Virus record (IMG/VR): IMGVR_UViG_2721755728_000004
Strand: one strand, 5' to 3'
Length of the DNA: 49,782 nucleotides
DNA from: a virus
Lineage: Duplodnaviria > Heunggongvirae > Uroviricota > Caudoviricetes
The notes under the pieces are model-generated. The model was not told where the DNA came from and did no database searches. It saw only the letters and a program-made list of their open reading frames with translations. Every line of letters begins with the position of its first letter. Position 1 is the first letter of the stretch. The translations under genes were made by a program, and so were the position numbers. Below are positions 1 to 49,782 of the stretch, piece by piece.

Positions 1-1284
1 TTACAGACTTCTGGAAGGTTGCGCAGCTCTTACAACACGCGGTTGATCTTCCGCAGCGTCTTCCAGCGCACTTAAATCACGGTCTTTCACCTCTGGCATT
101 TTCAGCGCAGAGATTAAACCAATCACTGAATATGCCATGATCATAATGGCGATCGGATACCAGGATTCCGTCATGGTGCAGAAAATACCCGCCAGGATAG
201 GACCAAAACCGGAAGCGATAAGACCACCAATTTCTTTAGAAATAGCCATCCGGGTAAAGCGGTTTTTACAGCCGAACATTTCTGCCATGGTAATGTTTTC
301 CAGAGCAAATAATCCCAGCACCGCACAGTTATGAATCACAATCAGTGCAACCATAATGGTGCTCGGGGCATAGCTTTTATCTACAATGATAGAAAGCATT
401 GGCCATGCCAGCACAATCGCGGAGGTATTCATAATAATATACGGGATCCGGCGACCAATTTTATCGGATAACCAACCAAGGAACGGAATGGTCATAAAGC
501 CGAGAATCGAACTAATCATCAATGCATCTGTTGGAATTGCTTTGTTAAACAATAACGTCTGCACTAAATAGCCTGCAAGGAAAGTCTGAATTAAACCTGA
601 GTTACCAACCTGACCAAAACGCAGCCCTGTTGCCAGCCAGAAGGATTTGCTCTGGAACATGCTACCGGCAGGTGCAGGTTTTGCTGTCGGTTGGTTGCTG
701 TCATTAACCTTCTCAAAGACCGGGCTTTCTTTCAGATTCATACGCAACCAGATAGCAAAGACCATCACGACAACGCTCGCCAGGAACGGTATACGCCATC
801 CCCACGCCAGCAGTTCCTCTTTACTGAGAATGAAGAACATAAAGGCCCAGATTGCCGTTGCGCTCAAGGTTCCGCAGTTAGTTCCCATAGCTACAAATGA
901 GGAGATAATTCCGCGCTTACCTTTTGGCGCATATTCCGCCAGCATCGTACCGGCACCGGAAATTTCCGCACCTGCACCCAACCCCTGAATAATACGCAGC
1001 GTCACCAGCAAGATGGGTGCAAAAACACCAATCTGTGCATAGGTCGGTAACACACCAATTAAGGTGGTACAGATCCCCATCATGGTGATGGTAATAAAGA
1101 GCACTTTTTTACGCCCTATTCTGTCGCCCATTTTGCCGAAAATAAATGCTCCGACAATACGCGCCACATAACCTGCACCGTAGGTTCCCATTGCCAGAAT
1201 TAACGCCATTGCCGTTGATGATTCAGGAAAAAATATTTCATGAAACACTAACGCTGCGCCGAGCGAATATAACTGGAAATCCAT
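1..1284 (-). CDS. ydfJ: MFS-family metabolite:H+ symporter (YdfJ-like)
   Basis: 427-aa ORF with MFS motif (GKMGDRIGRKK) and many hydrophobic segments; stop codon at window start; in-frame TGA two codons upstream of the ATG. Name from recollection of the K-12 Qin-flanking gene. Confidence 0.8.
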   Translation of the reverse strand: MDFQLYSLGAALVFHEIFFPESSTAMALILAMGTYGAGYVARIVGAFIFGKMGDRIGRKKVLFITITMMGICTTLIGVLPTYAQIGVFAPILLVTLRIIQGLGAGAEISGAGTMLAEYAPKGKRGIISSFVAMGTNCGTLSATAIWAFMFFILSKEELLAWGWRIPFLASVVVMVFAIWLRMNLKESPVFEKVNDSNQPTAKPAPAGSMFQSKSFWLATGLRFGQVGNSGLIQTFLAGYLVQTLLFNKAIPTDALMISSILGFMTIPFLGWLSDKIGRRIPYIIMNTSAIVLAWPMLSIIVDKSYAPSTIMVALIVIHNCAVLGLFALENITMAEMFGCKNRFTRMAISKEIGGLIASGFGPILAGIFCTMTESWYPIAIMIMAYSVIGLISALKMPEVKDRDLSALEDAAEDQPRVVRAAQPSRSL

Positions 1285-2069
1285 AATTCACAGGTGTTTT
1301 TCCCCATCCTGTGGTTTCCTTGGCGTTTTCTAGGTTTTTTCAGATAGTTGCATTTTTTAAAAAGCATCCTAAGTTCGATCTCAGTGTCTATCTGGGGCCT
1401 ATTTCTGTCCCATATATGCCCCAAAAAAACTCCCCAACAGATAAGTAGTTTTTTCATGGATTTATGCGTAAAATCAAGAACGGCTGGAAATCATTCAATA
1501 CTCACACTATCGAAAAATTTACCAGCCAACCGCAGCACGTTCTTGCATAAGGCGTGTCTGCGGTTTTTCAACTATTCAGATACATCACTCCCATCACATT
1601 CATTCCTCCGCATCAAAGGCATATAGGCTATATCACCTTGATATTTTTCTTCTTCAGATAAAAACTGTTATCTATGTATACTTTTAAACCCAATCCGTGT
1701 AGAGTCTCTGCATAAGATAGTTTGCAGTTGCCGCTTCAGCTTGCGCCATAAACCGCCTGATTTTTGCTGCCACCTGTTAGCATTCCTGTATACCTGAAAC
1801 GACAATGTTTATCTACGAACTTTAAGAACCCCCAGGATAAAAATTGTCAACTATATCATATATAACACATTACTAATTCGAGGCTATATGAACAGCATAC
1901 TGATAATCACTTCTCTCCTTATCATATTCAGCATTTTTAGTCATGCCCTAATAAAATTAGGGATTGGCATATCCAATAACCCAGACAAAACCGATGTATA
2001 AGTCAACATATCCTGAATCAGACATACAATATCGCAATGAAAATCAATAATATTTTAAGGAATATCTTC

Positions 2070-2303
2070 ATGAAATCAAAAGACACCCTAAAGTGGTTCC
2101 CTGCGCAGCTTCCTGAAGTAAGAATTATCCTAGGGGATGCTGTAGTGGAAGTAGCAAAACAGGGAAGACCTATCAATACCAGAACATTGCTTGATTACAT
2201 TGAAGGAAACATAAAGAAAAAATCATGGCTGGATAACAAAGAATTATTACAAACAGCGATATCAGTTCTTAAAGACAACCAAAATTTAAATGGTAAAATG
2301 TAA
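2070..2303 (+). CDS. ydfK: Small cold-shock-inducible prophage protein (YdfK/YnaE family)
   Basis: 77-aa reading frame starting MKSKDTLKWF with AAGGAA 9 nt upstream; position next to pin matches Qin/Rac layout. Identity from memory. Confidence 0.65.
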   Translation: MKSKDTLKWFPAQLPEVRIILGDAVVEVAKQGRPINTRTLLDYIEGNIKKKSWLDNKELLQTAISVLKDNQNLNGKM

Positions 2304-2619
2304 TATAATAAACTTACTTTTTTATCATTTTTCCACTTTAACAACATTTTGCTCCACTTTTCCACGACCAAACAACTTTAAATCTGGTTAAAATAACACG
2401 CAACACTATTCTTCTTCCTTGAGTCCGCCCGGAACTCGAAAAACAAACCGAGTTAAAGCCATTTTTCACAAAATCGATTTTGGGTCTCACCAAAGTTACG
2501 GGGTTGCATACGCATTCGTTTATTTTCGAACGTGTACATACAAATATGCACAAAAATAATCAAAATTATTTTCTGAGATGCATTATGATATGAACACCAA
2601 TTTCGTATAGAGTCTCACT

Positions 2620-3210
2620 ATGTCTCGAATTTTTGCTTACTGTCGGATATCAACGCTGGATCAGACCACCGAAAATCAACGCCGGGAAATCGAAAGTGCA
2701 GGTTTTAAAATCAAACCTCAGCAAATAATCGAAGAACACATTAGCGGCTCAGCAGCAACCAGTGAGCGTCCTGGTTTTAACCGGTTGCTTGCTCGCCTGA
2801 AATGTGGTGATCAATTGATTGTGACAAAACTGGATCGCCTTGGTTGTAATGCAATGGATATCAGGAAAACAGTGGAACAACTGACCGAAACAGGTATCAG
2901 AGTGCATTGCTTAGCATTGGGGGGCATTGACCTGACCAGTCCAACAGGAAAAATGATGATGCAAGTAATTTCAGCAGTCGCTGAATTTGAACGAGACCTT
3001 TTACTTGAACGCACTCATTCCGGGATAGTAAGAGCCCGGGGCGCAGGGAAACGTTTTGGTCGACCACCTGTGTTAAATGAAGAACAGAAACAGGTGGTAT
3101 TCGAACGGATTAAGTCAGGTGTAAGTATAAGTGCCATTGCCCGGGAATTCAAAACCTCGCGGCAAACCATTTTAAGAGCCAAAGCAAAACTTCAGACACC
3201 TGACATATAA
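2620..3210 (+). CDS. pin: Serine recombinase / DNA invertase (Pin/Gin/Hin family)
   Basis: 196 aa; N-terminal catalytic region (YCRISTLDQ with active-site Ser) and C-terminal HTH, typical of Pin/Gin/Hin invertases. Confidence 0.9.
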
Positions 3211-3307
3211 AAAATAATCTCGGTGTGAGATGCTTTACGTCTTCCAAGCCCCCTTCCTTGCCGTAAATGGAAAGATACATCTAATTATAGAATTTATATG
3301 TTTTACC

Positions 3308-3883
3308 CTACGGCAGTGCTGGCCATTCAATATCCTGTGCAGTTGACGTATCAACACGGTTCAGCAATACCCGATACTTTTTCCAGGCTTCCAGCAACGA
3401 GATTTCTTCCTCCGTTGCAATTTCCAGATCTGCAGCATCCTGAAGTGGCGCAATATGCTCACTGGCTACCTGCATCAGGCTGTTTTTTGTTTCTTCCGCC
3501 TCCCGGATCCGGAACAGTTTTTCTGCTTCTGCATCTTTCACCCAGGCTGTGCCGTTCCACTTCTGAAACTCCCCTTCCGGGGATAACCAGGTGACATTTT
3601 CCGGTAATGAGCCGAGTTCAGAAATAAATAACGCGTCGCCGGAAGCCACGTCATAAACCGTTTTACCCCGATGATCTTCAACGAGATGCCACGATGACTC
3701 ATCACTGTTGAAAACAGCCACGAAGCCAGCCGGAATATCTGGCGGTGCAATATAGGTACTGTTTGCTGGCAGACCTGTATGAGGCGGAATATATGCGTCA
3801 CCTTCACCAATAAATTCATTAGTTCCGGCCAGCAGATTATAAATTTTTATGGTCCGTGGTTGTTCACTCATTCTGAATGCCAT
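3308..3883 (-). CDS. tfa: Tail fiber assembly protein (Tfa)
   Basis: 191 aa, immediately downstream of stf on the same strand, Tfa-like sequence. Confidence 0.85.
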
Positions 3884-6797
3884 TATGCAAGCCTCACAAT
3901 GTAGTTAAATGCGATGTTTTTGACGGTGTTTTCCGCGTTACCAGCAGCGTTAACGGTGATGGTGTGTCCATGTGAGCCAATCGCAACAGAGTGCGTATGA
4001 GCACCAATACCGACAGTATGTGCGTGAGCACCTGCAGATGCAGCTGTGCCGCTGACACTATGAGTGTGCGCTCCTGCAGCACTTGTATTCACACTGGCCG
4101 CAGACACTACCTTATGTACTGACCCATTTTGTGACCACTGGCTGACTGCTGATGCGCCTGTGACACTATGAGTATGGTTTCCGGCACTTGCGGCTGTACC
4201 GCTCACACTGTGCGTATGCGCCCCGGTGTTATTCGTGGATTTAGTGCCGTAATCAAACGACGATGTGGTTTTCGTCCCCAAATCCGTACTGGATGCACTG
4301 GCGCTGTGGGTGTGCGATTTAATGCCGTCCTGTTCCTGAGACAATACGGCCCGACCACTGGCAGGTTTGCCCTTAATCGTCCAGCCACGCATATCAGGGA
4401 TCACGCCTGACGGATAAGCGGTTGCAAGTTTCGGGTAAGCGGATTTGTCAAAAGTCTGCCCCTGCATCAGGGCATAACCAGACGGAACGGTATCTGATGG
4501 CCACGGGATTGGTGCGCCAGGCGGATAAAACTGCTCTGATGGTGTATAGAGTGAATAAACTGTACCGTCCGTTAACCCTTCCGGCTTATTAGCAGAATAT
4601 GCTGGTGACGTATGAATAGTCACGCTGGCATTACTGGTATAATCCCATTGAATATTTACACCAGTCGCATAATTTCCGATTGCAACGTAAATATCGTAAG
4701 TATCACCAGATGTATTGACCCAGGCAAAATTTGTAAACCCTGTCGATGTGCGCTGCCATAAAGCACCAGTAATCCCCTTCGGATTACCATTACCTGCACG
4801 CAAAACAAGTTCAGATATACCTGCCTGTTGAGGTGACCCCACGTTAAATCCCGCGCCACCAATCAACGTAATTGAAACAACAGAACTCGCCTGTGGCATG
4901 GTTACCGTTGCTAATTTGAACCAACCAGCACCACCGCTGAATGACATTGTTGTTGAGTTAAGCGTACCAATATCTTTCGGCGTCAGTGTTATATCCGCTG
5001 AAAGCGCCTTACCATTCACCTTACGGGCAGAAGGTACCCGACCATTCGCATTATCATTAGCTGCTTTCACTGCTTTCGGTGTCGCGGCAAGCGTTTCAGA
5101 TGCGCTGTTGGTTGCACTACTGAGCTGGACAATTCCTTTTTGTGCTGTCGTAGCGTCCTGAGCAGTATATTTCCCGTTAGCAAGGTCATAGGCTGCCTTT
5201 ACCGACTTTGGCGTTGCCGCCAGCATTTCAGATGTGCTGTTGGTCGCGCTGCTGAGCTGAACTATCCCTTTCTGTGCTGTCGTTGCATCCTGTGCGGTGT
5301 ATTTCCCGTTAGCCAGCTCATACGCGGCCTTAACGGCTTTTGGCGTTGCCGCCAGTGACTCGGAAGTGCTGTTAGTCGCACTGCTGAGCTGTACTATCCC
5401 CTTTTTCGTCGTGCTCGCATCCTCAAGCGCCACGGCGGATGCAATATCCTCTGCCCGTTTTGCCGCTGTCTCGGCGCGCGTTGCCGCGGATTCCGCCGTA
5501 CTTTTGCTCTGAGCTGCCGCCGTCGCACTGCCAGCTGCCTCTGTCGCCTTCGTGGATGCCGTCGTGGCGCTGCCCTTTGCTGCTGACGCCTGTCTGGTCG
5601 CCTCATCTTTTGAAGCAGACGCAGATGATGCCGATGACGCCGCCGAACTGGCGGACGATGCGGCAGCCGTTTTTGAGGATTCTGCGCTGGTTTCCGACGC
5701 TTTCGCGTTCGTCTCGGATGTCTTCGCTGCGGAAGCAGACCTCGCTGCTGCGCTGGCCTGTTCAGTGGCTTCGCCAGCCTTCGTTGTGGCTGTTGAAGCG
5801 GACGATGCGGCGCTTTCTGCCGATTTTCCGGCAGCGGTGGCACTGGCTGAGGCCTGCCCGGCACTTGTTGACGCGGCACTGGCAGACGACGCAGCCGCTG
5901 TTTTTGAGCCTGCCGCAGCTGAGGCGCTCTGTCCCGCTGCCGTCTCAGAAGACCTGGCGTTCGTCTCGGACGTTTTTGCCGCCTTCGCGGAATTTGCTGC
6001 CGCCGTTGCCGAGGAAGCTGCGCTACTGGCGCTCGAGGATGCGTTCGTTTCTGATGATTTTGCCGCCTCTTTTGAAGCCGACGCATCCCGGGCTGAGGTG
6101 GCAGCTTCTGACGCTTTCGTGGTCGCGGTGGATGCAGAAGTGGCGGCTGATTGTTGTGACGCTGCAGCATTCGTTCTGACGTTTTCGCGGCAGCGGCACT
6201 GGTAGCTGCCGCGCTTTTTGAGGACTCTGCAGCGGCAGCACTTTTTTCCGCTTCAGTGGCCTTTGTTGATGCCGTTCCTGCGCTGGAAGACGCTGACTGA
6301 GCCGACGAAGCGGCCTGTCCGGCTGACGTGCTGGCTGCACGTGCTGAATCTGCAGCATCAGTCGCATGGGTTGCCGCCTCACGGGCAGATGTGCCGGCAT
6401 CACTGGCTGACTTCTTCGCGGCTGCCGTGTTCTGTGCCACCACGGACGCGTTACGCGCCACCTCTTCCACCATCTGTTCAAAACGGCGCAGTGCCTCCGG
6501 ACGGGCATCATCCTCCGTCATGGCACCGAGAAAATCATTCAGCGTACCCGGCTGAGAATCTTCATACACGGTGATGGTCCCGGCATGTGACGGCGGGAAT
6601 CCTTCCACCAACAGAATAACGCTGTACTGACCGTACTCAACGTCCATGCTGTAACGCCCGGCTTCATCCGGATTTTCTGAGGCCAGCGTGTTCACCACCA
6701 CCGTGGTGCTGTTACGTTTTGCTTTCAGCTGGATTGTGCAGTTCTGTACCGGTTTTCCTGTGCCGTCTTTCAGTACACCTGAAATCTTTACTGCCAT
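3883..6797 (-). pseudogene. stf: Side tail fiber protein Stf, interrupted by an apparent 1-nt frameshift near 6174-6176
   Basis: N-terminal approx. 208 codons (from ATG at 6797) are lambda Stf-like, then the Stf-like Ala/Ser/Thr-rich sequence continues in another frame down to the conserved C-terminus (..[18 protein letters not shown]) at 3883. The ORF-track entry 5394..6803 reads Arg/Pro-rich nonsense after the shift. Confidence 0.6.
5070..5433 (-). repeat. Tandem 117-bp (39-aa) repeats inside stf, about 2.7 copies
   Basis: Protein repeat [41 protein letters not shown] occurs three times in a row; DNA shows the matching direct repeats. Boundaries approximate. Confidence 0.6.
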
Positions 6798-6800
6798 ATT

Positions 6801-6834
6801 CACCCCACAAAAAAGCCCGCCTGAACCGGCGGGC
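6801..6834 (-). terminator. Rho-independent terminator after lom, abutting the stf start
   Basis: GC hairpin (gcccgcc..ggcgggc) followed by a T-run on the minus strand. Confidence 0.5.
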
Positions 6835-6861
6835 TGTCATAACACTGTGTTACCTGGCTAA

Positions 6862-7461
6862 TCAGAACTTATAACCGACACCCACGATGAAACCGTCAGT
6901 GCGCCAGTCGCCACTGCCGGAGCCTTCATAAGCAATATCAATGGCCACGGATTCGGTCGGGTTAAACTGCACGCCAGCTCCCCACGCCAGAGACGTGTTG
7001 CTGTGGCGACCGTCATCACTTCCGGTCAGTACATCGTGCGTTTTCCCCTTGTTGTCAGTTACGCGAAGATAATCCCCGGAGAAAGTCGACACACGGCTGT
7101 AAGCCACACCCGCCATCGCATACGCGCTGAACCATTCATTCACGCGCACAGACGGCCCCGCCATCACGCTGAACCAGCGGTTACGCACGGAATCTTCATG
7201 CCAGCGGGTATCGCTGTAATGGGTCAGCTGGCGATTCTTGTCTCCTGCATAGCTGAATGACGTCACCATCCCCAGTGTGTCCGTAAACTCATAACGGTAT
7301 TTCACGTTAATCCCGTTCAGATCATCGCTGCCGGGAACGTTCGTCGAGGCATGAAGATACCCCGCGCTCAGCGTGGACTGATGTTCAGACGCCCATGCAG
7401 GCGCACCGGATACGGCCAGACAAATGGCTGCGGACAAAATGGCGGCATAAAGTTTACGCAT
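6862..7461 (-). CDS. lom: Outer membrane protein Lom (Ail/Lom family)
   Basis: 199 aa with signal peptide and Lom-like beta-barrel sequence; located between J and stf as in lambda. Confidence 0.9.
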   Translation of the reverse strand: MRKLYAAILSAAICLAVSGAPAWASEHQSTLSAGYLHASTNVPGSDDLNGINVKYRYEFTDTLGMVTSFSYAGDKNRQLTHYSDTRWHEDSVRNRWFSVMAGPSVRVNEWFSAYAMAGVAYSRVSTFSGDYLRVTDNKGKTHDVLTGSDDGRHSNTSLAWGAGVQFNPTESVAIDIAYEGSGSGDWRTDGFIVGVGYKF

Positions 7462-7482
7462 AATTACCTCTCGCTTTTCTGC

Positions 7483-7509
7483 AATAAAAAAGGCGTCATT
7501 TCTGACGCC
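7483..7509 (-). terminator. Rho-independent terminator between J and lom
   Basis: Hairpin ggcgtca-tttc-tgacgcc followed by a T-run on the minus strand. Confidence 0.5.
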
Positions 7510-7527
7510 CGTTATGGGTTATAAAAT

Positions 7528-10929
<3,402 letters not shown>

Positions 10930-10937
10930 TCACACTC

Positions 10938-10968
10938 CATAAACAACAAAGCCGCCCAAAAGGCGGCT
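10938..10968 (-). terminator. Rho-independent terminator downstream of the lipoprotein moron
   Basis: Hairpin gccgcc-caaaa-ggcggc followed by TTTGTTGTTTAT on the minus strand, just upstream of the J start. Confidence 0.5.
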
Positions 10969-10992
10969 CATGAGTTACGGCAGGATTAACTA

Positions 10993-11331
10993 TTATTTAC
11001 ATGCATTAACACTATCAGCAAAAATTTTTGGCGTTAATGCTGGTACGCGTTCATAAAGAGTAAAACTACTGCCATTTCCTGCTTTTTTGATATCAAGCAC
11101 AACATCATACCCACCCATAGCCTGTGGAACTAAAAGGCTTACCCCATTCTCAATAGGAATGGATGTTATAGGTGTTCCATTACCAGCCCATTGTCTGGAT
11201 ATGCAGCCTGACAATTCATCAATATTTTTTAATGAATTACCTTCCATTACAGGCTTGCCGGATTTTACGTAATCCAAAGATTTACATCCTGTTAAGGCAA
11301 TAATCGTGCAGAATAAAATCGTTTTGTTCAT
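10993..11331 (-). CDS. Lipoprotein moron of unknown function
   Basis: 112 aa from ATG at 11331 (MNKTILFCTIIALTGC..): signal peptide plus lipobox LTGC. AT-rich relative to neighbours and inserted between tail genes I and J. Confidence 0.7.
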   Translation of the reverse strand: MNKTILFCTIIALTGCKSLDYVKSGKPVMEGNSLKNIDELSGCISRQWAGNGTPITSIPIENGVSLLVPQAMGGYDVVLDIKKAGNGSSFTLYERVPALTPKIFADSVNACK

Positions 11332-11403
11332 ATAGCTAACCAACAGAATAATTATCAGTGTTCGATATAAATATTAAATCAGTTAGAACATGAGTAAATA
11401 ATA

Positions 11404-12045
11404 TTACCGCCCAATTACCACAACCTGACCACCATCCCCTTCATCTGCCGTGCTGATCTCCTGAGATGCCACACGTGACCCCACGCGCATTTCACCGTAC
11501 AGAACAGGCAGGACATTGCCCTGGGCAACCATGTTATCCAATGAGGAAAAATAGGTATTTTGCTTACCGTTATCAGTGGCTGACACTTTAGGCGTTTTGG
11601 CTTTCGGTGCCAGCATCTGCGCAACACCGCCTAAAACCATACCTGCCCCAAGAGAGAACATGAGATTACTTGCAACAATACTAAGCCCCGGCATCCAGAT
11701 TGCCGTAGCAATTAGCGCCGCACCCAGCACTGCCTGAAAAATACCGCCACTTTTGGCACCCGCCAGACGCGGTACGATGTGGATCACGGCACCATTTGCC
11801 AGCGGCTCATTAAGACGGGCAGATAATTCGTTTTCGCCTGCATCACGCCCGGAAATGCGCACCTGATACCAGCCCTCATTCAGTTTCTGGCGAAACGCCG
11901 GAAGCTGCGTGGCCAGTGCGCGGATGGCTTCAGCCCCCGTTTTCACACGAAGGTCGATGCGGCGGCCAAATCGTTGCAAATCCCCGTAAAGGCAGATGCG
12001 TGCCATTCCCGGTGACGCCAGAGGGAGTGTGTGCGTCGCTGCCAT
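11404..12045 (-). CDS. Tail assembly protein I
   Basis: 213 aa, lambda I-like (MAATHTLPLASPGMARI.., C-terminal ..GDGGQVVVIGR). Confidence 0.85.
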   Translation of the reverse strand: MAATHTLPLASPGMARICLYGDLQRFGRRIDLRVKTGAEAIRALATQLPAFRQKLNEGWYQVRISGRDAGENELSARLNEPLANGAVIHIVPRLAGAKSGGIFQAVLGAALIATAIWMPGLSIVASNLMFSLGAGMVLGGVAQMLAPKAKTPKVSATDNGKQNTYFSSLDNMVAQGNVLPVLYGEMRVGSRVASQEISTADEGDGGQVVVIGR

Positions 12046-12719
12046 TTGTCGGTATACCTCTCTCGTTTACTCAGTTGTTCAGGAATATGGTGCAGCAGCT
12101 CACCGTCGCCGCAGTAAATGGCGGCATGATTCGGCACCGATGAACCAAAACAGCACAGCAGAATATCGCCCGCCTGTGCAGAGGACAGGGGCACCCGGTA
12201 AAAGCCCGTTGCCTCCATATTGTCCAGGTACAGGTTCTGACCGTTTCGCCACCACTCATCCTCGCGGTGAAAATCCGGCATCTCAATCCCCGCCAGATGG
12301 TATGCATCCCGGAACAGCGTGTAACAGTCCGTCACCCCGTGCTCAAAACGCCGCCCGGTCAGGTGTGGAACACAGCGGAATTTATGAATGTCTCCCCGGC
12401 AGACCAGCCACCAGGACAGTGCGCTTTTTATCTGCAGACGCCGGTCTGCCTCGCTCAGCCAGGGCAGACCACAGGGATGACTGTGGACCAGCGCCACAAT
12501 CCCCCCCTGCATCTCTGCCTGCAGCCAGTCTTCCGGTGCAATACGAAAATACGCCTCCGGCTCTGCGGAGATATTCACGCAGGGAAAATATCTTTCCCCC
12601 TCCGGCGTTCTCACCACGAAGCCGCACGACTCCGCTGGCGCACATCGCCGGGCGTGCGCCAATATATTGCTATAGAGCATGAGAACTCCTGATAAAAAAC
12701 CCAGCCGAAGCTGGGTCAT
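11943..12719 (-). CDS. Tail assembly protein K (MPN/JAMM + NlpC/P60 domains)
   Basis: HSHP metal-binding motif and NlpC/P60-like C-terminal part; overlaps the start of I. True start may be internal. Confidence 0.85.
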   Translation of the reverse strand: MTQLRLGFLSGVLMLYSNILAHARRCAPAESCGFVVRTPEGERYFPCVNISAEPEAYFRIAPEDWLQAEMQGGIVALVHSHPCGLPWLSEADRRLQIKSALSWWLVCRGDIHKFRCVPHLTGRRFEHGVTDCYTLFRDAYHLAGIEMPDFHREDEWWRNGQNLYLDNMEATGFYRVPLSSAQAGDILLCCFGSSVPNHAAIYCGDGELLHHIPEQLSKRERYTDKWQRRTHSLWRHREWHASAFTGICNDLAAASTFV

Positions 12720-12734
12720 TTCGTTGGCAATCTG

Positions 12735-13739
12735 TTAGTAGTGATGCAGTGAAGGAGGTAATTCTTTGTTCTTAAGTCTTACCCATGCAGAAAGATTCGT
12801 TGGTCCGTCTGGCTCATTAATATCAATATCTCGCGTGTGATTGATTAAAACGTCTCTCGCCATTCCGATAACATACGAGAACTCATGGCCGTAGTCGTAG
12901 CACCTGCCAGAATAGTTTGATTGAATTTGCTTTAGCGCCGGATACAGTTCGCGGAATAATGCCTGTGAGCGGTTGGCATAATCCCATAGCCATACAAGGC
13001 TGTTTGCTTCTTTCGCTGAAAACTCATTGGTGCTCTTCTCTTGTTTGCCGATTAACTCTCCTTCAAGCGGAACGCGAGCAGCAAGTGACAGAGCTTCGGT
13101 AAACTGCTCCTCGCTGATTTCTTTGTATGAACACCCAAAATGAGATTTCAGTGACGACCACATGGTAATCATCGCCTTCGCCTGTTTTTCTTTTGGCAGA
13201 GACTGACCGCGACTCATGACGAGTTGTTTAATGGCTTCCTGCTGTTCAGTGGTGATTTTCCCCAGCAATGCCTTTTTAGCTTTGCGCGGGTTAACCACAT
13301 GGCCTTTAGTCCAGTACTCGTAGAGCACATCGTCACACTCTTCCTGATACTGGATTACCTTCTCGCGGATTTCAGGGCGGACTTTGTTTGGTTGAATACT
13401 TGAAAGCCAAGCCGCAAATTTACGAAAGGCAAGACATGTCATTAACTGTTTACCGCCAGCAGAAGGTATTTCGATTTCCGAAATACCTTTGGCAAACCTC
13501 TGTTTTAACTTAACAAATTGAGCAGCCCAAACCATCCCCATACCTTCAACAACAGGCTTCATAGGAACATAAGGCTCATTGTTAATTCCAACCAAAAAGA
13601 GATTTGTTCCGTGGAATGGAACATTGATTGTGCGATCTGCAATTGCTAAACTAGTCATATCAGTTTTCTCGTGGTTAACTGGTAATTTAGAAGCCTCAAT
13701 GGTTGCAGCCATTGGGGCTTCGCTGTTTTTAGCGACCAT
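12735..13739 (-). CDS. Antirepressor-like protein (Ant-type)
   Basis: 334 aa from ATG at 13739 (RBS GAGGTG); N-terminal region resembles phage antirepressor domains; lies directly downstream of an Arc-like gene. Family assignment from memory only. Confidence 0.55.
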   Translation of the reverse strand: MVAKNSEAPMAATIEASKLPVNHEKTDMTSLAIADRTINVPFHGTNLFLVGINNEPYVPMKPVVEGMGMVWAAQFVKLKQRFAKGISEIEIPSAGGKQLMTCLAFRKFAAWLSSIQPNKVRPEIREKVIQYQEECDDVLYEYWTKGHVVNPRKAKKALLGKITTEQQEAIKQLVMSRGQSLPKEKQAKAMITMWSSLKSHFGCSYKEISEEQFTEALSLAARVPLEGELIGKQEKSTNEFSAKEANSLVWLWDYANRSQALFRELYPALKQIQSNYSGRCYDYGHEFSYVIGMARDVLINHTRDIDINEPDGPTNLSAWVRLKNKELPPSLHHY

Positions 13740-13902
13740 TCGCCACCTCTTCCCTAACACCTTTTGCCAGCAAACGAACAATTGCAGAGTTCAGAGATAT
13801 ACAGTCCATTTCCGCCAGGCGGCGAAGGTCTTCATTCAGCCGTGATGGAAGGCGAAGGTTGAGTTTGATATTTTTGCGCTCAGTGAAAAGTGTATCTTGC
13901 AT
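13729..13902 (-). CDS. Arc-like ribbon-helix-helix repressor (57 aa)
   Basis: ORF below the 60-aa track cutoff, found by hand: MQDTLFTERKNIKLNLRLPSRLNEDLRRLAEMDCISLNSAIVRLLAKGVREEVANGR. RBS AAGGAG upstream; stop overlaps the ant start; RHH pattern like P22 Arc. Confidence 0.6.
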   Translation of the reverse strand: MQDTLFTERKNIKLNLRLPSRLNEDLRRLAEMDCISLNSAIVRLLAKGVREEVANGR

Positions 13903-14008
13903 TATCTAATCTCCTTTATTTGGTGCCAAAGTGACGCCATGAAGGCCATAATGCCACCATTGAAATCGTATGGCAATATGGCACCATGATTTTTTTGAGA
14001 GATTTGCA

Positions 14009-14329
14009 ATGGCCGAAAAACAAGTAAAAGACTACGACAAGTTCAACCTCCGTTTTCCTGACGGAATGCGAGATGCTATAGCTGAACGAGCCAAACGAAA
14101 CGGGCGCTCTATGAACTCAGAGATTGTTCAGATACTGGAAGATGCCTTGAATGCAGAAAATACTCTTGGGGAAATAGCAGACAAAATCAACAGCGTCTCG
14201 GTTCCGCTAAATGTTGATGCGCTAGTTCAACTTCAAGCCCAAGTGATCGCCATGCAAAAAGAAATACAGGAAAAGTTCAGAGAGCAGAACGAAAAGTTGA
14301 GAGAACTGCTAAACAAAAAACCCACCTGA
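14009..14329 (+). CDS. Mnt-like ribbon-helix-helix repressor
   Basis: FNLRFPDGMRDAIAERAKRNGRSMNSEIVQILEDAL closely resembles the P22 Mnt N-terminus; transcribed divergently from arc-ant. Confidence 0.65.
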   Translation: MAEKQVKDYDKFNLRFPDGMRDAIAERAKRNGRSMNSEIVQILEDALNAENTLGEIADKINSVSVPLNVDALVQLQAQVIAMQKEIQEKFREQNEKLRELLNKKPT

Positions 14330-14348
14330 CGGTGGGCATAATCCATTA

Positions 14349-20946: not shown

Positions 20947-21222
20947 TTACTCAATAAAGATCATTGGCTTACTGTTAAAACGTTCATGCCGTGTGACCGT
21001 CCATTGTTGTCCGTCATAAACAACGCGATCCCCGCGCCGTGGGCGGTATCCCGAAGAAAACACCACCAGAGAGACCGCAGGTCCGGACAGAGCATTCAGC
21101 TCTGCCAGTGTTTCTCCCGGGATCACAGTCATATCGACATCATTAATCGAGGCTGTCTTTCCCATCTTTCTGACCGTGATCGCATCCATACGCGCTGCCA
21201 GCCGGGAAAAGGGATCAGACAT
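20947..21222 (-). CDS. Head-tail joining protein (FII-like)
   Basis: 91 aa between the head genes and Z; RRGD..W.V motif reminiscent of lambda FII. Confidence 0.55.
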   Translation of the reverse strand: MSDPFSRLAARMDAITVRKMGKTASINDVDMTVIPGETLAELNALSGPAVSLVVFSSGYRPRRGDRVVYDGQQWTVTRHERFNSKPMIFIE

Positions 21223-21299
21223 TGAGTTTTACCGGCACTTCTTCTGCACTGGTTCCGGCATCTGCCCATACAACCCCGACCAGCGGATCAGAGCCGCTG

Positions 21300-21539
21300 T
21301 TAGTCAAGCTGAACTTTTCCTGACTTCAGATAAACCTTCTTACCCGTTTTCATGTCATCCGTTTTCAGCTTAGGCAGCATAAACACACCTTCGGTTATGC
21401 CGTCGCCTGTTTCTCCCTGTGGAATATCGGTCAGCGCCACCGCAAAAACATCACCCACCTGCACCAGATCTCCGCTGCTGATGGCTGCACTGGCAACAAT
21501 CGCCACCGTTTTTCCTTCTTCTACAAAATTCTTTGCCAT
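21300..21539 (-). CDS. Hypothetical head-tail region protein
   Basis: 79 aa from MAKNFVEEGK..; sits between the capsid gene and FII-like gene; function not recognised. Confidence 0.4.
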   Translation of the reverse strand: MAKNFVEEGKTVAIVASAAISSGDLVQVGDVFAVALTDIPQGETGDGITEGVFMLPKLKTDDMKTGKKVYLKSGKVQLD

Positions 21540-21625
21540 AACTGTCTCCGCACAGCCCCGTTCAGGGGCTGATTTCAGGTACAAAAAAAGCCCTTACGGG
21601 CCATCAGAGTTGTTGTCTGCGACGT

Positions 21626-23630: not shown

Positions 23631-25106
23631 CTACTGTCGTTTCGTTGCGGCACTGCTGCCTCCTTTATCACTGGCCGGATCGGTATCAAATACCAGGTCC
23701 AGCTTGCGGTTTTCATCAATTTCGGCCTTGCGCCGACGTTTGACATCATCCGGATTACGACCACCTGCACGTACCCAGTCTGATTCTGTCGCCGCTCCAC
23801 CACGAATCTGGATTTTCCAGGCCTCAGCCTCCTTAACAGGGTCAATCCACGGCATCACCGGTCCGGAATACACCGCGGTATACAGTGAAGATCGGTCAAG
23901 ATCGCGGGGTAGCCTGATAACACCGGATGCCACAGCCTGTTTCAGCCAGGCACGATACATCGGGCGGGTGACGGCACCAATAAACCAGTCCTGCAGGATC
24001 AGGTAGCCATCAGTGGATTCAACCAGCTCCTGACGCTGGGCGCTGTAAGTGCCGTTATAGTTGCGCGCTGTACTGGAAAAACTCAGACGACTGCCCGCCG
24101 CCACGGCACGCAACTGAGCATTACGAAAAGTTTCAAGGTTAGGATTTGGGCGATCCGACTTCACCATTCCGATTTCTTCGCCGGGTTTCAGATCGTCGTA
24201 AATAATGCCTGGCTGAATGGTAAGCTCGCGTTCATTCTCCTTGCTGTCATTACCATCCGTTTCATAGCTCTGTCCGTCGCCTTTCCGGATGTACATCCCC
24301 AGAGCAGCGGCGACCCTTGCTGCAGTCAGCTCAGAATCTTCATACTCTTTCAGGGCGCTGAGGCGGATCAGCACACCGGACAATAAAGACGTCCCGCGCA
24401 TCTGGTGCAGACGGCGAACAAATTTAAGATGCAGCATTCGCTCTGCATCCACTTCTTTGGTTTCCATCTGCCGTCCGGATACAGGACGACTTTTATACAC
24501 CAGATATTTTTCGGGACGCCCCCAGTCATCAACAAACACGCCCTGATTCAGCCTGTTGCTCTCATCACTGGTCATGGGAATAAAGTCCGGCTCGAGCGCC
24601 TCCAGCCAGAAATGAACACCGGCAGAAGGCGTCAGGCTGTTTATGCGCCCGGAAACCATCTGGGCAAACACCTCACCATCGCGCAGCCAGGTACGCAGCA
24701 TCAGACGTTCCAGCATCGGACGGGTAAACTGCCCGGTGACCTCCGGACTGACAGACCATTCACTCCATCGGGTACGTATCTCCGCAGCCAGGTCACGGGC
24801 AATGGCCCCATTGCGTAATACCGGATGTGGCTCGACAATAATCCCGTTTTTCCCCACCACCCGTTCTTCCAGCTTGTCAAATACACCAATGACCAGATCG
24901 TGGTTGTTATCAAGGTAACGAGCCTGCTCACGTAACGACACGGCCCCGTACTGGCTTAACTGGTCGGCAGTTCGGTTCTCCCGTCGGGCTTTGTGTGTCC
25001 GCGTCGTTTTTACGGCCTCATAAGCCTGGATCACCGCACGGGAACGCAGCCTTGCCGCTTTCCATCCTGGTGAAAAAACGCCAATCACATCATCAAGAAT
25101 TGCCAT
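23631..25106 (-). CDS. Portal protein
   Basis: About 490 aa between the W-like gene and the protease-capsid gene; start (MAILDDVIG) overlaps the W stop. Confidence 0.85.
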   Translation of the reverse strand: MAILDDVIGVFSPGWKAARLRSRAVIQAYEAVKTTRTHKARRENRTADQLSQYGAVSLREQARYLDNNHDLVIGVFDKLEERVVGKNGIIVEPHPVLRNGAIARDLAAEIRTRWSEWSVSPEVTGQFTRPMLERLMLRTWLRDGEVFAQMVSGRINSLTPSAGVHFWLEALEPDFIPMTSDESNRLNQGVFVDDWGRPEKYLVYKSRPVSGRQMETKEVDAERMLHLKFVRRLHQMRGTSLLSGVLIRLSALKEYEDSELTAARVAAALGMYIRKGDGQSYETDGNDSKENERELTIQPGIIYDDLKPGEEIGMVKSDRPNPNLETFRNAQLRAVAAGSRLSFSSTARNYNGTYSAQRQELVESTDGYLILQDWFIGAVTRPMYRAWLKQAVASGVIRLPRDLDRSSLYTAVYSGPVMPWIDPVKEAEAWKIQIRGGAATESDWVRAGGRNPDDVKRRRKAEIDENRKLDLVFDTDPASDKGGSSAATKRQ

Positions 25107-25324
25107 CAGAACCTCGCCAGCCGGTACCCGGGATGCCCCCGTCGTCGTGTAATCAGAGCCGCAAGGCGGCGCTCCCACTCCTGCCGCCCCTGCCGGATCT
25201 CAGATAAGTTTTCCATGGTCATCTGCTGACCATTAAAAGTGACGGATTTTCCGTCCAGCACCGCCATTTCAGCTTCCGTATAACGCTGAATCATGGCTTC
25301 AATATCATTCTGATTCATAACCAT
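25106..25324 (-). CDS. Head-tail joining / head completion protein (gpW-like)
   Basis: 72 aa immediately after the terminase gene; C-terminus RRRGHPGYRLARF resembles lambda W (..RRRGPAGFYV). Confidence 0.55.
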   Translation of the reverse strand: MVMNQNDIEAMIQRYTEAEMAVLDGKSVTFNGQQMTMENLSEIRQGRQEWERRLAALITRRRGHPGYRLARF

Positions 25325-27418
25325 CCTCCGGAAGTCAGCCAGGGGTTAACATCGTCAGTTACTGTTTTCTTCCGTTTTTGTTTTTTAACAGGCGTGGATA
25401 CCGGTTCCGGTGAGGGTGACGGTTCGGTACTGTCCGGGACACACTCCAGCCAGGTTTCCCGGCTCGCCCACTCCGGTGCATCCGGCCAGCGGATCTTTTC
25501 GTATCCATGCAGAATGACCAGAGCCTCGGCATACACCATCAGGTCAAAAGCTTCGTTGGCACCGCGACCCGGCTTACTCCATTTCCCGTCACTGCTCCGC
25601 TCTTCATACGTCAGTTCGTCGTAAAACCAGCTCCCCAGCCAGTCAGGGAAATGCACATAGCCGGGACCTGGCGAGTCACGCCATAACGCGTTATTCACCC
25701 GGTCTTTCAGGGCATCCGTCTGAAGAAGCCAGAGCGGCACATCACCTGCGGCCTGCGCCCGTCGGCCCGTTCGTCCGGTGTTATCAGGGAATGTACGGGT
25801 GATCAGTTTTGCTCGCCGGATGCTGTCGCCCTTAAACAGGTAAATACGTTTACCAAGGCCATCACGACGGCAACGACGCCAGAATTTATAGGCATTATCA
25901 GTGACCCCGTCTTCACCGCCGGAGTCCACCGCCATTGCCATCAGTCGCATTTGTTGAGAAGGGGCGGAGGCCAGCGGCCAGCTTTTATGAAAAACATCCG
26001 TCAGCAGGACATCCCAGTCTTCCGGATAGCTGGCCGGATCAATTCGCTGGCTCTCCCCGTCGCTGTCACCGCGCAATGACTGCGTGATGTTGTAACGATC
26101 AATAATCCAGCGTTCGCCACGGCTGCCATAGCCCGTTACCTGAACCACAAAACGGCGATGACGTCCCGCCTGCACATCCACTGTCGCCACAAGGAAATTA
26201 ACGCCATCCGGCACACTGCGGGAAGGAACTGGCTCTGCCCGCTGCTCAAGCAGTTCACTTTTTCGTTGCTCCATGCTGGCGCGGGGAAGATAAGGTAATC
26301 CCCAGTCGGTATTGATAACCGTCTTGAGTGTTTCTTCACTTCCGGTTGTCTCGTATTCCTGTTCTGCAGTAAGCAGTTTGTAAACGAGTTGCGAGAGTGT
26401 CTGGTAAGCAGCTGCCGGACCCTCCATCCAGAATGACGCAATACGTGAGCGTCGGGGATCACCATAACGACTGCCATCCGCATTGATGGATTCACCATCC
26501 CGCAACCAGACCCCACGTCCGTTCAGCTCACGTTTTTGTTCAGGCATAATCCGTCCTGAACAGGAAGGACACTGAATATAAGCCGCCTCACTTGCCAGCA
26601 CAGGATCGGCAATATCACGGAAACCAGCAACCACATCGCCGCAGGGCTGAAAATACTCACCACAGTGTGGACAGGGCCAGTACCAGCGACGGCGATCACC
26701 ACGGTTATAGAGCGACAGGATCCCCGTGGTTGGTGGAGCCTCATGCGGTGAAGTCCGTCGCCATTTCACATCCTTCACATCCCTGCCGGGGGAACTCTCC
26801 ACAAGCGTCATACCGCTGGACATAAATGTGGTGGTACGTTTTGAGGCAAGAGAGAAAGCATCCCCCTCGCCATCAATATCTTCCGGAAAACGGTCATAAT
26901 CCGTCAGCGCGACGCATTTATAATCTGATGAAGGACATGATATTGACTGACGGCCAGCCGATTTTCAGGTAGTTGCCAGCAAGGAATGTTCTGTCATAAA
27001 CGTTGTTGTCATTTTTGTTCGGACTCAGGCGACTGACCACTTCCGGGCTGACGCGAAACGTTCTGGCGAGTCGTTTTTTGGAGTGTTCGCGGGCTTTTTC
27101 CTCCGTCATCTGAATGATCAGCATATCAGCAGGATCGCAAATCACGTTGTAAATCACCCAGCCGTCAATCAGGCCGATAGTCTTGCCGGTTCGTGCCGGG
27201 CCAACAAATATCACTGCGTCGTATTCACGCGAGGCCAGGCAGTTCATAGGCTCAATAACATACGGTGCCACCAGCGGATCCCACGGGACTGAGTTCCCTG
27301 CCCCCATGGGCACCCGCATATACTGAGCAACGGCATCAGCAACCCGCATTCGTCTCGGTGCGCGAAGGATATAACCTGAATCGGTTCGTGCTGCCTTTGC
27401 GGTTTCCTGATTCAGCAT
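25315..27418 (-). pseudogene. Terminase large subunit (lambda gpA-like), split by an apparent frameshift near 26930-26950
   Basis: N-terminal 166 codons (Walker A GPARTGKT) end at a stop at 26918; the gpA-like continuation (TDYDRFPEDIDGEG, CPHCGE..) is open in another frame from 26964 downward. The two frames overlap by only 44 nt. Confidence 0.65.
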
Positions 27419-38898: not shown

Positions 38899-40482
38899 GT
38901 CCACAAAACTGCCAACTTCCGCTTCTTGCTCTTAGCGGACATTAGCATAGGCTATTTACCATAACGCCTCATTACGCGCACCGCCCAGACTGACTCAGCG
39001 CGTTTCTGGCATATCCCCGGTAAAACAAGTAACAAACCACCCGAAAATGAACACCAGAAACGCGACTTAAGAATCTACCCTATGAATGGATATGCACTCA
39101 ACCGAATCGATCTTGGTTTCAATCTATTTTATCGGGATCAGGCTTCTTTTTAGGTAACTTCGGGGGCTTAACTTGCTGATGACTTTGCGTTCGGCGCGTA
39201 GGCCAGGGATGGTCAGCTTTAGATTTAACATAGTATTTTGAGCGTAAATCAATACGGGCATTATCCACTCGTTCATGGACACTCTTTTCATCATCCAGTG
39301 GTATAGGCTCCGGGCCATCAACATACTTTTCCCAGCCCAGCGCTTTCCCGTCATACAGAACGTTAATTTCACCGTCAAAGTTCTCACATACAGTAACAAC
39401 CGAATGCCTAAGTCGATATCCCCGGCCCTCACTGCGTACCTGAAACGCACTGCTTTTGTACTGGAAAGTGAGATTTTTAGACAGAACGCGCTTCGCCTGT
39501 AGGCTGAAGATATAACCCAGTTCCTCTTCAGAATGGTGCACATCAAGATGAGCATTATCAGTAGTACGAGGCGACGTAGCGAACCGGTTGTTATAGGCTT
39601 CAATAAAGGTCGGCAACCATGCATTTGCTGTTTCAATATCACTGATATTCTGAAGCCACATTTCTTTGACCAGCCTGTCCTGTAGTGTCTGATTGGCGCG
39701 CTCTACCCGCCCTTTTGCCTGCGGGCTGTTGGCATGGATTGGCTCGATGCCCAGTGTCTTTATCGCACGAGTGAACTGGGTCAGCTCACCTTCCCGCTCT
39801 GGGTTATTTACCCTGAATATACTGTGTCTATCAGAGTAGAGAGCGAGCGGTACGCCATGATCATTAAGGTAACCCCGGAGGGTTTCCATGTAAGCCCGGG
39901 TTGTTTCAGCAGGCACAAAACGCAACGCCATCAACGCACTGGTGGCATCATCAATGAAAACGATCAGTGTACATCTGGGGCCTCGATTTTCAAACCAGTC
40001 ATGAGGTGAGCCATCAATCTGGATCAGTTCACCGTAAGATGGTCGTCGCATGCGGCGTTGATATATACGGGCAATTTTACGACGGCGTTCACGCCATAAC
40101 CCCTCTTCTATCATCCACTTTCTGAGAGTTTCAACGGATAAAGATAAACCGTGTATCTCGCGCAATTTTTCGCACGCAAACGTAGGTCCAAAATCAGCGT
40201 AACGGCCTTTGAGGAGTGAAATTACTGTTGCTCTGAATTCAGTAGAAAAGGAATTATTAGGACGCTTTCCACGTCGGTGGGAAACCAGACCAGAAGGCCC
40301 TTCATTTCTATACCGTTGCACCAGACGTTTAACCTGCCGAATAGAAATGCCAATGCGTGCCGCAGCTTGTTCCTGAGTAATATGTCGATTAATTGACTCC
40401 TGAATAATCTGAAGTCGGTGGAGTTCCTTATGACTCATCGTAACAGTCTCTTTGATCATGAAAAATCCCCCAGAGAATTGTC
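38899..40482. mobile_element. Putative insertion sequence, about 1.58 kb, carrying one DDE transposase
   Basis: Bracketed by identical 8-bp direct repeats TGGGGACA (38891..38898 and 40483..40490) that may be a target-site duplication. Terminal inverted repeats could not be identified, so boundaries are tentative. Confidence 0.4.
39119..40459 (-). CDS. DDE transposase with integrase-core (rve) domain and N-terminal HTH (IS481/ISNCY-like)
   Basis: 446 aa; HTH N-terminus, then D (QIDGSPH), D (YSDRHS) and E (GRVERANQ) spaced like retroviral-integrase-type transposases. Confidence 0.7.
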   Translation of the reverse strand: MIKETVTMSHKELHRLQIIQESINRHITQEQAAARIGISIRQVKRLVQRYRNEGPSGLVSHRRGKRPNNSFSTEFRATVISLLKGRYADFGPTFACEKLREIHGLSLSVETLRKWMIEEGLWRERRRKIARIYQRRMRRPSYGELIQIDGSPHDWFENRGPRCTLIVFIDDATSALMALRFVPAETTRAYMETLRGYLNDHGVPLALYSDRHSIFRVNNPEREGELTQFTRAIKTLGIEPIHANSPQAKGRVERANQTLQDRLVKEMWLQNISDIETANAWLPTFIEAYNNRFATSPRTTDNAHLDVHHSEEELGYIFSLQAKRVLSKNLTFQYKSSAFQVRSEGRGYRLRHSVVTVCENFDGEINVLYDGKALGWEKYVDGPEPIPLDDEKSVHERVDNARIDLRSKYYVKSKADHPWPTRRTQSHQQVKPPKLPKKKPDPDKID

Positions 40483-47812: not shown

Positions 47813-49279
47813 ATGAGAGAAGTTGAAATGAAATATCCGACAGGCGTGGAAAACCATGGAGGGAAATTACGTATCTGGTTTGTTTATAAAGGCGTAAGAG
47901 TCAGGGAAAACCTGGGGGTTCCTGACACAGCAAAAAACAGGCGCGTTGCAGGTGAGCTACGCGCCTCTGTTTGTTACGCAATAAAAACTGGTGTTTTCGA
48001 CTATGCAAAACAGTTTCCCTCCTCACGCCATCTGGAAAAATTTGGTGAGACCCGACAAGATTTAACCATAAAAGAACTGGCTGAAAAATTTCTGGCACTG
48101 AAAGAAACTGAAGTCGCAAAAACATCACTCAACACATACCGTGCCGTCATCAAAAATATCCTGAGCATAATCGGTGAAAAAAATCTTGCCTCATCGATTA
48201 ATAAAGAAAAATTACTGGAGGTTCGTAAAGAGCTACTGACTGGATACCAGATCCCCAAAAGTAACTATATTGTTACACAACCAGGGAGATCGGCTGTAAC
48301 TGTAAATAATTACATGACAAATCTTAACGCCGTGTTCCAGTTTGGTGTTGATAACGGTTACCTGGCAGATAACCCGTTTAAGGGGATCTCGCCATTAAAG
48401 GAATCAAGAACCATTCCGGATCCTCTTTCGCGGGAGGAATTCATCCGTCTTATCGATGCGTGCAGAAATCAGCAAGCCAAAAATTTATGGTGTGTTTCTG
48501 TTTATACTGGCGTTCGCCCTGGTGAGCTGTGTGCACTTGGATGGGAGGACATAGATCTGAAAAATGGAACAATGATGATCAGGAGAAATTTAGCAAAAGA
48601 CCGTTTCACGGTACCAAAAACACAGGCGGGAACCAATCGGGTCATTCATCTTATTAAGCCAGCAATCGACGCTCTCCGGAGTCAGATGACATTAACGAGA
48701 CTGAGCAAAGAGCATATCATTGATGTTCACCTCAGAGAGTATGGCAGAACAGAAAAACATAAATGCACCTTTGTTTTTCAACCTGAAGTGTCAGCGAGAG
48801 TAAAAAATTATGGTGACCATTTTACCGTTGACTCAATAAGGCAGATGTGGGACGCAGCGATAAAACGTGCCGGACTCCGCCATCGAAAATCATATCAGTC
48901 GAGACATACTTATGCCTGCTGGTCGCTGACAGCTGGTGCTAACCCGGCATTTATAGCAAACCAGATGGGCCATGCAGATGCGCAAATGGTATTTCAGGTA
49001 TACGGAAAATGGATGTCTGAAAACAATAATGCACAGGTAGCTTTGTTAAATACACAGTTAAGCGAGTTTGCCCCAACCATGCCCCATAAATCTTCAATGC
49101 TTTTACCAAAGCGCGCCGCTTCAATAGGCGTTAAGCGATGGTGCATGTCATGCAGCAAATGTTCATTAAAACCAAACTTGTTACGTACCGCGTCAAACAA
49201 TTTCGGCATGAAATCGAGGTATTTCTCCGTCGACCACAGCTGCTCTTCCGGCCACTGTCCTTTGGTTGCGGGTTCATAA
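47813..49279 (+). CDS. Tyrosine integrase; the 3' end of the ORF reads into host rspA antisense sequence
   Basis: Catalytic region with ..HTYACW.. and ..[16 protein letters not shown].. (LGH...Y motif, Tyr near 49004). The last 63 codons beyond about 49089 are antisense to rspA and are probably not native. Confidence 0.8.
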
Positions 49280-49782
49280 GCCAGACCTTTACCTTTCGAC
49301 ATGCCGTAGGTGGTTTTCATACCAGGGATTCCGCACTGCACGCGGATGGCTTTGAATCCCAGCTCCTGATGACGGGCATAATCATCCAGAGCTTCATCAA
49401 TACTGTGACCGGTGGTATGGCAATAAACCATCACCCCTTCACGAGACGCGCCGCCGAGTAACTGGTAAAGCGGCATGTTGGCCGCTTTGGCTTTAATATC
49501 CCACAGCGCCATATCAACCGCTGAAATGGCCGACATCGTAACCGGACCGCGACGCCAGTAAGCACCTTTATAGAAAAACTGCCAGATATCTTCGATACGG
49601 TGCGCATCGCGACCAATAAGCTGCGGACAAAGGTGATCCTGCAAATAAGAGGCCACGGAAAGCTCACGTCCATTGAGAGTGGCATCCCCAAGGCCCGTAA
49701 TACCGTCCTCAGTGGTGATTTTTAATGTGACGAAATTACGCCCCGGACAGGTAACAAAAACTTCAGCCTTTACGATCTTCAT
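49090..49782 (-). pseudogene. rspA: Enolase-superfamily dehydratase RspA, 3'-truncated at the prophage junction
   Basis: N-terminus [33 protein letters not shown].. starts at the window end. The ORF is only 262 aa (family members are about 400 aa) and diverges after ..FGKSIED into sequence encoded by phage DNA. Confidence 0.6.

Follow-up and report, generated by a model that had tools for sequence, protein, structure and literature searches.

A frameshifted side tail fibre gene in a Qin-site lambda-like prophage of Escherichia coli: a probable inherited null allele spread by recombination

The window analysed here (the whole 49,782-nt stretch of DNA) is a segment of Escherichia coli chromosome with a lambda-like prophage at the Qin site (ydfJ..rspA), in which stf, the gene for the lambda-type side tail fibre, is a pseudogene of the Stf family whose frame is split by a one-base deletion. 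The same deletion lies on an identical tract common to two distinct prophages, one at the DLP12 site and one at the Qin site, and is therefore likely to be an inherited allele spread by recombination. Taken with its rarity and its sequence context, this makes a real inherited null the most likely reading, rather than a read error or a programmed frameshift.

Results

The window begins within a truncated ydfJ (1..1284) and ends with an integrase gene and a truncated rspA. The pseudogene occupies 3883..6797 on the minus strand and is 2915 nt long, as against 2916 nt (971 aa) for the intact form. Directly upstream of it is lom, which codes for an Ail/Lom outer membrane protein of 199 aa (6862..7461, minus strand; Pfam PF06316, E = 2e-121), preceded by an intact ORF of 1132 aa (7528..10926, minus strand) that carries the gpJ label in homologous loci and corresponds to J, the central tail fibre or tail tip protein. 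On its other side stf is followed immediately by an intact tfa, for the 191-aa tail fibre assembly protein (3308..3883, minus strand; PF02413, E = 1.2e-43), so that its place in the late operon, downstream of J and lom and just upstream of tfa with all four genes on the minus strand, is that of a lambda-type stf. Adjoining tfa is a gene for a Pin/Hin-type (Pin-family) serine invertase (2620..3210, plus strand), and a scan of positions 1300-7600 for an invertible segment on which it might act revealed no convincing inverted repeats.

Translation from the stf ATG at 6797 yields a 467-aa product in which only codons 1-208 (6174..6797, minus strand) are native. These comprise the tail-attachment domain PF08400 (residues 1-134) and the start of an Ala/Ser-rich stalk and end in AAAAKTSE at residue 208, with four alanines before KTSE and not the three that the earlier note had given, a trivial difference. 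From residue 209, the first aberrant one, the frame runs on for 259 codons (5394..6173, minus strand) rich in arginine, proline and glutamine (78, 42 and 40 residues, respectively) to a stop at 5396..5394. The 469-aa ORF listed at 5394..6803 is the same N-terminal part of Stf with the same out-of-frame tail, and the earlier note was right to call it spurious. The rest of Stf lies in the −1 frame (3883..6174, minus strand), whose 764 codons resume the native sequence at 6174, are open to the stop at 3883 and specify the remaining stalk, three fibre repeats, a collar domain and a His-rich C-terminal receptor-binding region. This distal frame is open from 6252, and its sole start codon is a GTG at 5433. 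A 764-codon open frame is too long to be due to chance, and since it overlaps the native N-terminal part by one base, one base must be missing. In agreement with this, alignment with the intact stf of E. coli O103:H2 12009 shows a single gap, at 6172..6176, where GAAACG has become GAACG by loss of one A from a run of three (the remaining AA being 6175-6174), and the same lone gap appears in the alignment with the Qin-site copy of B7A. Both the position (about 6174-6176) and the missing A of GAAACG had been proposed from the letters of the window by the earlier note, and both stand. Because the deletion at 6172-6176 leaves no single continuous full-length frame of the kind that a functional stf has, the gene is filed as a pseudogene.

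Restoring the A gives an ORF of 2916 nt and 971 aa, where about 970 aa had been estimated, that differs from the Stf of O103:H2 12009 (WP_000279114.1) by one substitution, A919V. In the corrected protein Pfam identifies the lambda-type Stf N-terminal domain PF08400 at residues 1-134 (E = 7.5e-72; score 240 bits, cut-off 26.6), followed by three PF03406 fibre repeats, PF07484 at 761-808 and PF03335, the fibre repeats and gp37-like His-rich C-terminus expected of the family. The domain architecture of the repaired Stf is thus complete, and the PF08400 match together with the place between lom and tfa confirms that the gene had been correctly identified as stf. Neither the exact 467-aa product nor the corrected 971-aa protein had a match in the protein collection searched.

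We then looked for the deletion elsewhere with a 40-mer centred on it, which cannot seed on intact alleles. Among 5,426 complete E. coli genomes it was found at three places in two genomes, once in C3, from a cow, and twice in OkiPb01675, from bovine faeces in Okinawa; the deletion was missing from the other 5,424, although about 940 complete E. coli genomes have this stretch of stf. Among the matches listed, all 28 of the intact type span 81 nt where the window has 80 nt. No match to the junction 40-mer was found in 50,697 phage records, and none to a junction-spanning 30-mer in exact-pattern scans of IMG/VR, JGI metagenome contigs and GTDB species representatives, the positive control being the intact 31-mer, which was found in 59 viral contigs. 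The three copies in RefSeq (RG26_RS01425 of C3, and ACZ5SP_RS02870 and ACZ5SP_RS09580 of OkiPb01675) carry the same one-base deletion on an identical surrounding haplotype and are labelled 'frameshifted' by PGAP; the exact allele is thus already annotated. Two of the three are at DLP12, unlike the window copy, and they show 1-2 SNPs relative to it elsewhere in the gene. Since the window stf differs from that of C3 by one other base and from that of OkiPb01675 by two, the window is a third assembly; a search with its left half found no full-length near-identical match. In C3 and OkiPb01675 one copy each of the allele is in a prophage at the DLP12/ompT locus, and the second copy of OkiPb01675 (ACZ5SP_RS09580) is in a Qin-site prophage and has a longer, different central domain (3353 nt; 1117 aa if repaired), so that the deletion is present in stf of both the 971-aa and the 1117-aa type.

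As another possible measure of allele frequency we considered exact matches to the 516-aa ORF of the C-terminal frame, found in 354 contigs, and rejected it, since in 10 places inspected only C3 had the deletion. The same ORF, starting from the GTG equivalent to that at 5433 of the window, is also called in intact genes (loci L015 and L018), in a 5′-deleted gene (L009) and in genes with other indels (L011-L014, L016 and L017). Gene callers often fail on stf, even on intact copies.

A missing A can arise in a consensus as well as in a genome, and two one-base lesions elsewhere in the window do look like errors of assembly. The terminase gene terL is split, relative to C3 and OkiPb01675, by an inserted base (junction at about 26932) into fragments in different frames, 26918-27418 with residues 1-162 and 25315-26931 with residues 163-700. 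The insertion falls on a synonymous TCT/TCC polymorphism, where the window reads TCCT. Likewise, the gene for a 107-aa DUF2190 head protein (21215-21584) is split relative to OkiPb01675, C3 and B7A by a base inserted at about 21306-21308, at a synonymous CTG/TTG site where the window reads CTTG. Neither insertion junction had a match in any complete E. coli genome. At both sites the two closest relatives differ by a synonymous C/T change and the window shows both alleles as 'CT', which suggests a mixed-consensus artefact and lowers the trust to be placed in the window assembly. If the stf deletion were of this nature, one A of AAA would have been dropped from the consensus and stf would be intact in the organism. 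In keeping with such a reading, other long-read assemblies, several in number, have one-base deletions elsewhere in stf (at 234-235, 264, 315, 551, 579, 707, 822 and 1224), the Ala/Ser-rich region (551, 579, 707 and 822) being prone to error or to mutation, and an Okinawa cattle E. coli genome series that uses OkiPb names was sequenced by Nanopore only (PMC12613899), in a paper whose main text does not name OkiPb01675. Against it, the same deletion is found in three assemblies and at four loci and in none of the 5,424 other complete genomes, including those among the approximately 940 with this stretch of stf, and a run of three A's is short for a homopolymer error. Moreover, another stf copy in the C3 assembly with the same 30-nt context reads AAA, as does OkiPb01676, which shares its strain series name and source with OkiPb01675, and this argues against a technology error specific to the context. 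Since other strains have the allele, it is probably no read error; we regard an artefact as unlikely and a genuine loss-of-function mutation in the prophage stf, inherited and spread by recombination, as very probable.

A real deletion could still be one from which Stf is made. The shift needed to join the two frames is −1 and the frames overlap by 78 nt (6252..6174), as would suit a programmed −1 ribosomal frameshift or transcriptional slippage yielding a short N-terminal product and full-length Stf, in the manner of lambda G/GT. However, the two-frame layout is not conserved, with the junction in 2 of 5,426 genomes: essentially all homologues are single-frame, the intact 31-mer in viral contigs included, which also answers the reservation in the earlier note that intact homologues might share the frame structure of the window. 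Furthermore, no X XXY YYZ slippery heptamer occurs in the zero frame of the site (GCG AAA ACG TCA GAA CGA ATG), where the A runs are of 2-4 nt, and the nearest A6, 70 nt upstream, is too short for efficient slippage by RNA polymerase. We rejected a programmed −1 frameshift on the grounds of conservation and the missing heptamer, and hold recoding in either form to be exceedingly improbable.

The lesion also shortens a mononucleotide run by a single unit, and side fibres would be a plausible target for reversible phase variation through slipped-strand mispairing, given that phage tail fibres are varied by other switches and that a Pin-family invertase gene adjoins tfa. Contingency loci, nonetheless, have long simple-sequence tracts, usually of at least 7-8 units for a mononucleotide, whereas the run here is A3 in intact alleles and A2 in the window, far shorter than the tracts in which slippage occurs often. 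The allele is, besides, rare and restricted to a lineage instead of being polymorphic across strains, and the identical haplotype around the deletion points to descent and not to recurrence. With so short a tract and a rare allele on one haplotype, phase variation was rejected, and it is scarcely credible that the site toggles side fibres.

That the inherited deletion has moved between prophages is indicated by the extent of the sequence around it. Between 3926 and 7029, a tract that carries the deletion, the window shows zero differences from the DLP12-site stf/lom copy of C3, and the flanks are 3-10% diverged: tfa, pin and J of the window differ by 3-10% from those of the C3 copy and are of the Qin type. 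The N-terminal part of this tract (5465-7029) is also common to the Qin-site copy of OkiPb01675. Within OkiPb01675 itself, the DLP12-site and Qin-site prophages are 100% identical over a tract of about 4.3 kb, made up of lom, the 3′ part of J on one side of it and, on the other, the initial 1.3 kb of stf with the deletion. The tract is bordered on the left by sequence 1-6% diverged and on the right by the non-homologous central domain and then 4-12% divergence. An assembly chimera of two prophages in the strain of the window would equally account for what the window shows, but leaves OkiPb01675 unexplained. Exchanges of this sort have a precedent in lambda, where homologous recombination with the Rac and Qin prophages exchanges stf/tfa DNA (PMC3945230). 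On the simplest reading, the mutation occurred only once, in a cattle-associated E. coli lineage, where the AAA run would have lost one A at codon 208/209, and homologous recombination (gene conversion) would then have copied the allele from one co-resident lambdoid prophage to another.

The prophage of the window is decaying in other respects too. Around 49089 (in 47813-49782) it lacks 1,758 bp that OkiPb01675 has, so that the integrase gene breaks off 19 nt before its end and continues into the middle of rspA; rspB, the 3′ end of the integrase gene and part of rspA are lost. C3 has the same deletion, which presumably removes the attachment site of the prophage, and the prophage is likely to be locked in the chromosome. 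In the portal gene (23631-23633), GAG of C3, OkiPb01675 and B7A is TAG in the window and the last 11 residues are lost (KRQ-stop-PQYTDDQSEE); among the relatives compared, this stop and the terL and DUF2190 insertions occur in the window alone.

Several further features were observed along the window and its C3 counterpart. A tail-tip segment (10958-14345) is about 87% identical to, or cannot be aligned with, relatives that are otherwise 98-99.8% identical, and extra genes occur between J and I (a 116-aa lipoprotein-like ORF, 10993..11343; phrog_914, function unassigned) and between K and L (a 348-aa P22 Ant-type anti-repressor, 12735..13781). The early region has an ORF (39119-40459) whose identical counterpart in C3 is annotated as a truncated IS1202-like ISEsa1 transposase. 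The C3 prophage (locus L007; NZ_CP010119, 3453000-3502900), followed from rspA, enters a different tail-fibre module and ends by ssrA instead of ydfJ, which implies a large rearrangement between two prophages; it also has frameshifted tape-measure and tail genes.

Discussion

In Ur-lambda, the collar on the tail is built from the N-terminal regions of Stf, and it is the C-terminal domain that binds OmpC (PMC12617516). The 467-aa product of the window gene would consist of the tail-attachment domain, some 70 stalk residues and then 259 nonsense residues, and the remaining stalk, the fibre repeats and the receptor-binding C-terminus would stay unjoined to that domain. With the attachment domain cut off beyond residue 208 and the distal frame having no start before the GTG at 5433, functional side fibres should, to judge from the sequence, not be made from this gene, and any particles formed would presumably have only the central fibre J to adsorb with, like laboratory lambda.

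Homogenisation of a null allele on both lambdoid prophages of one strain might reflect selection for fibreless particles instead of neutral decay, because a high adsorption rate can cost a phage in structured habitats, according to one study (PMC2762979); alternatively, the retained N-terminal collar fragment might interfere with side-fibre assembly in co-induced or superinfecting lambdoid phages. We consider either reading very unlikely. The stf frameshift is an ordinary prophage pseudogene, a known kind of prophage decay, that raises no new question and has little import past annotation, where a single stf pseudogene should replace the 469-aa and 516-aa ORFs, which are to be taken neither as two proteins nor as a novel Arg-rich protein. 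Its only mildly notable point is that it offers a small, well-delimited case of a loss-of-function allele copied between co-resident prophages, and one that can serve to mark a bovine E. coli lineage as well as gene conversion between prophages.

Qin of E. coli K-12 is a defective remnant. Its stfQ/tfaQ/pinQ region resembles that of the window in both integration locus, with a truncated ydfJ on one side and the rspA side on the other, and gene order (ynfT-ydfK-pin-tfa-stf), and the prophage of the window differs in keeping almost all of its head, tail, lysis and regulatory genes. The intact stf of O103:H2 12009 (971 aa) differs from that of the window by four nucleotide substitutions and one indel over 2916 nt. 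It has the same neighbours (J, lom, tfa, invertase and ydfK) but reads AAA and is in a DLP12-site prophage, at the DLP12/ompT locus, whereas the window copy is at the Qin (ydfJ) locus.

Ur-lambda Stf, of 774 aa, is shorter than the repaired Stf of the window, which has 971 aa and three fibre repeats; lambda and window proteins are 73% identical over the N-terminal 395 residues and 69% over the C-terminal 245. The lambda PaPa gene (orf401 + orf314) is the same gene in the same J-lom-stf-tfa position and, relative to Ur-lambda, likewise has a one-base deletion that leaves an N-terminal ORF and a C-terminal frame, with loss of side fibres expected in both cases. In lambda PaPa the frameshift abolishes the side fibres and the phage stays viable via J (PMC12617516; PMC10721106). 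The two lesions are at different places in the gene, as the earlier note had stated: that of lambda, loss of a C, is at about codon 393-401, after the first fibre repeat (the N-terminal frame of HK630/lambda ending at residue 401), and was not found in the window stf, in which an A is lost at codon 208/209, within the Ala/Ser-rich stalk, where the lambda frame runs unbroken. The lambda PaPa allele, moreover, belongs to a laboratory phage stock and that of the window to chromosomal prophages of bovine E. coli, which makes the window lesion a clean natural parallel to the classic one of lambda PaPa.
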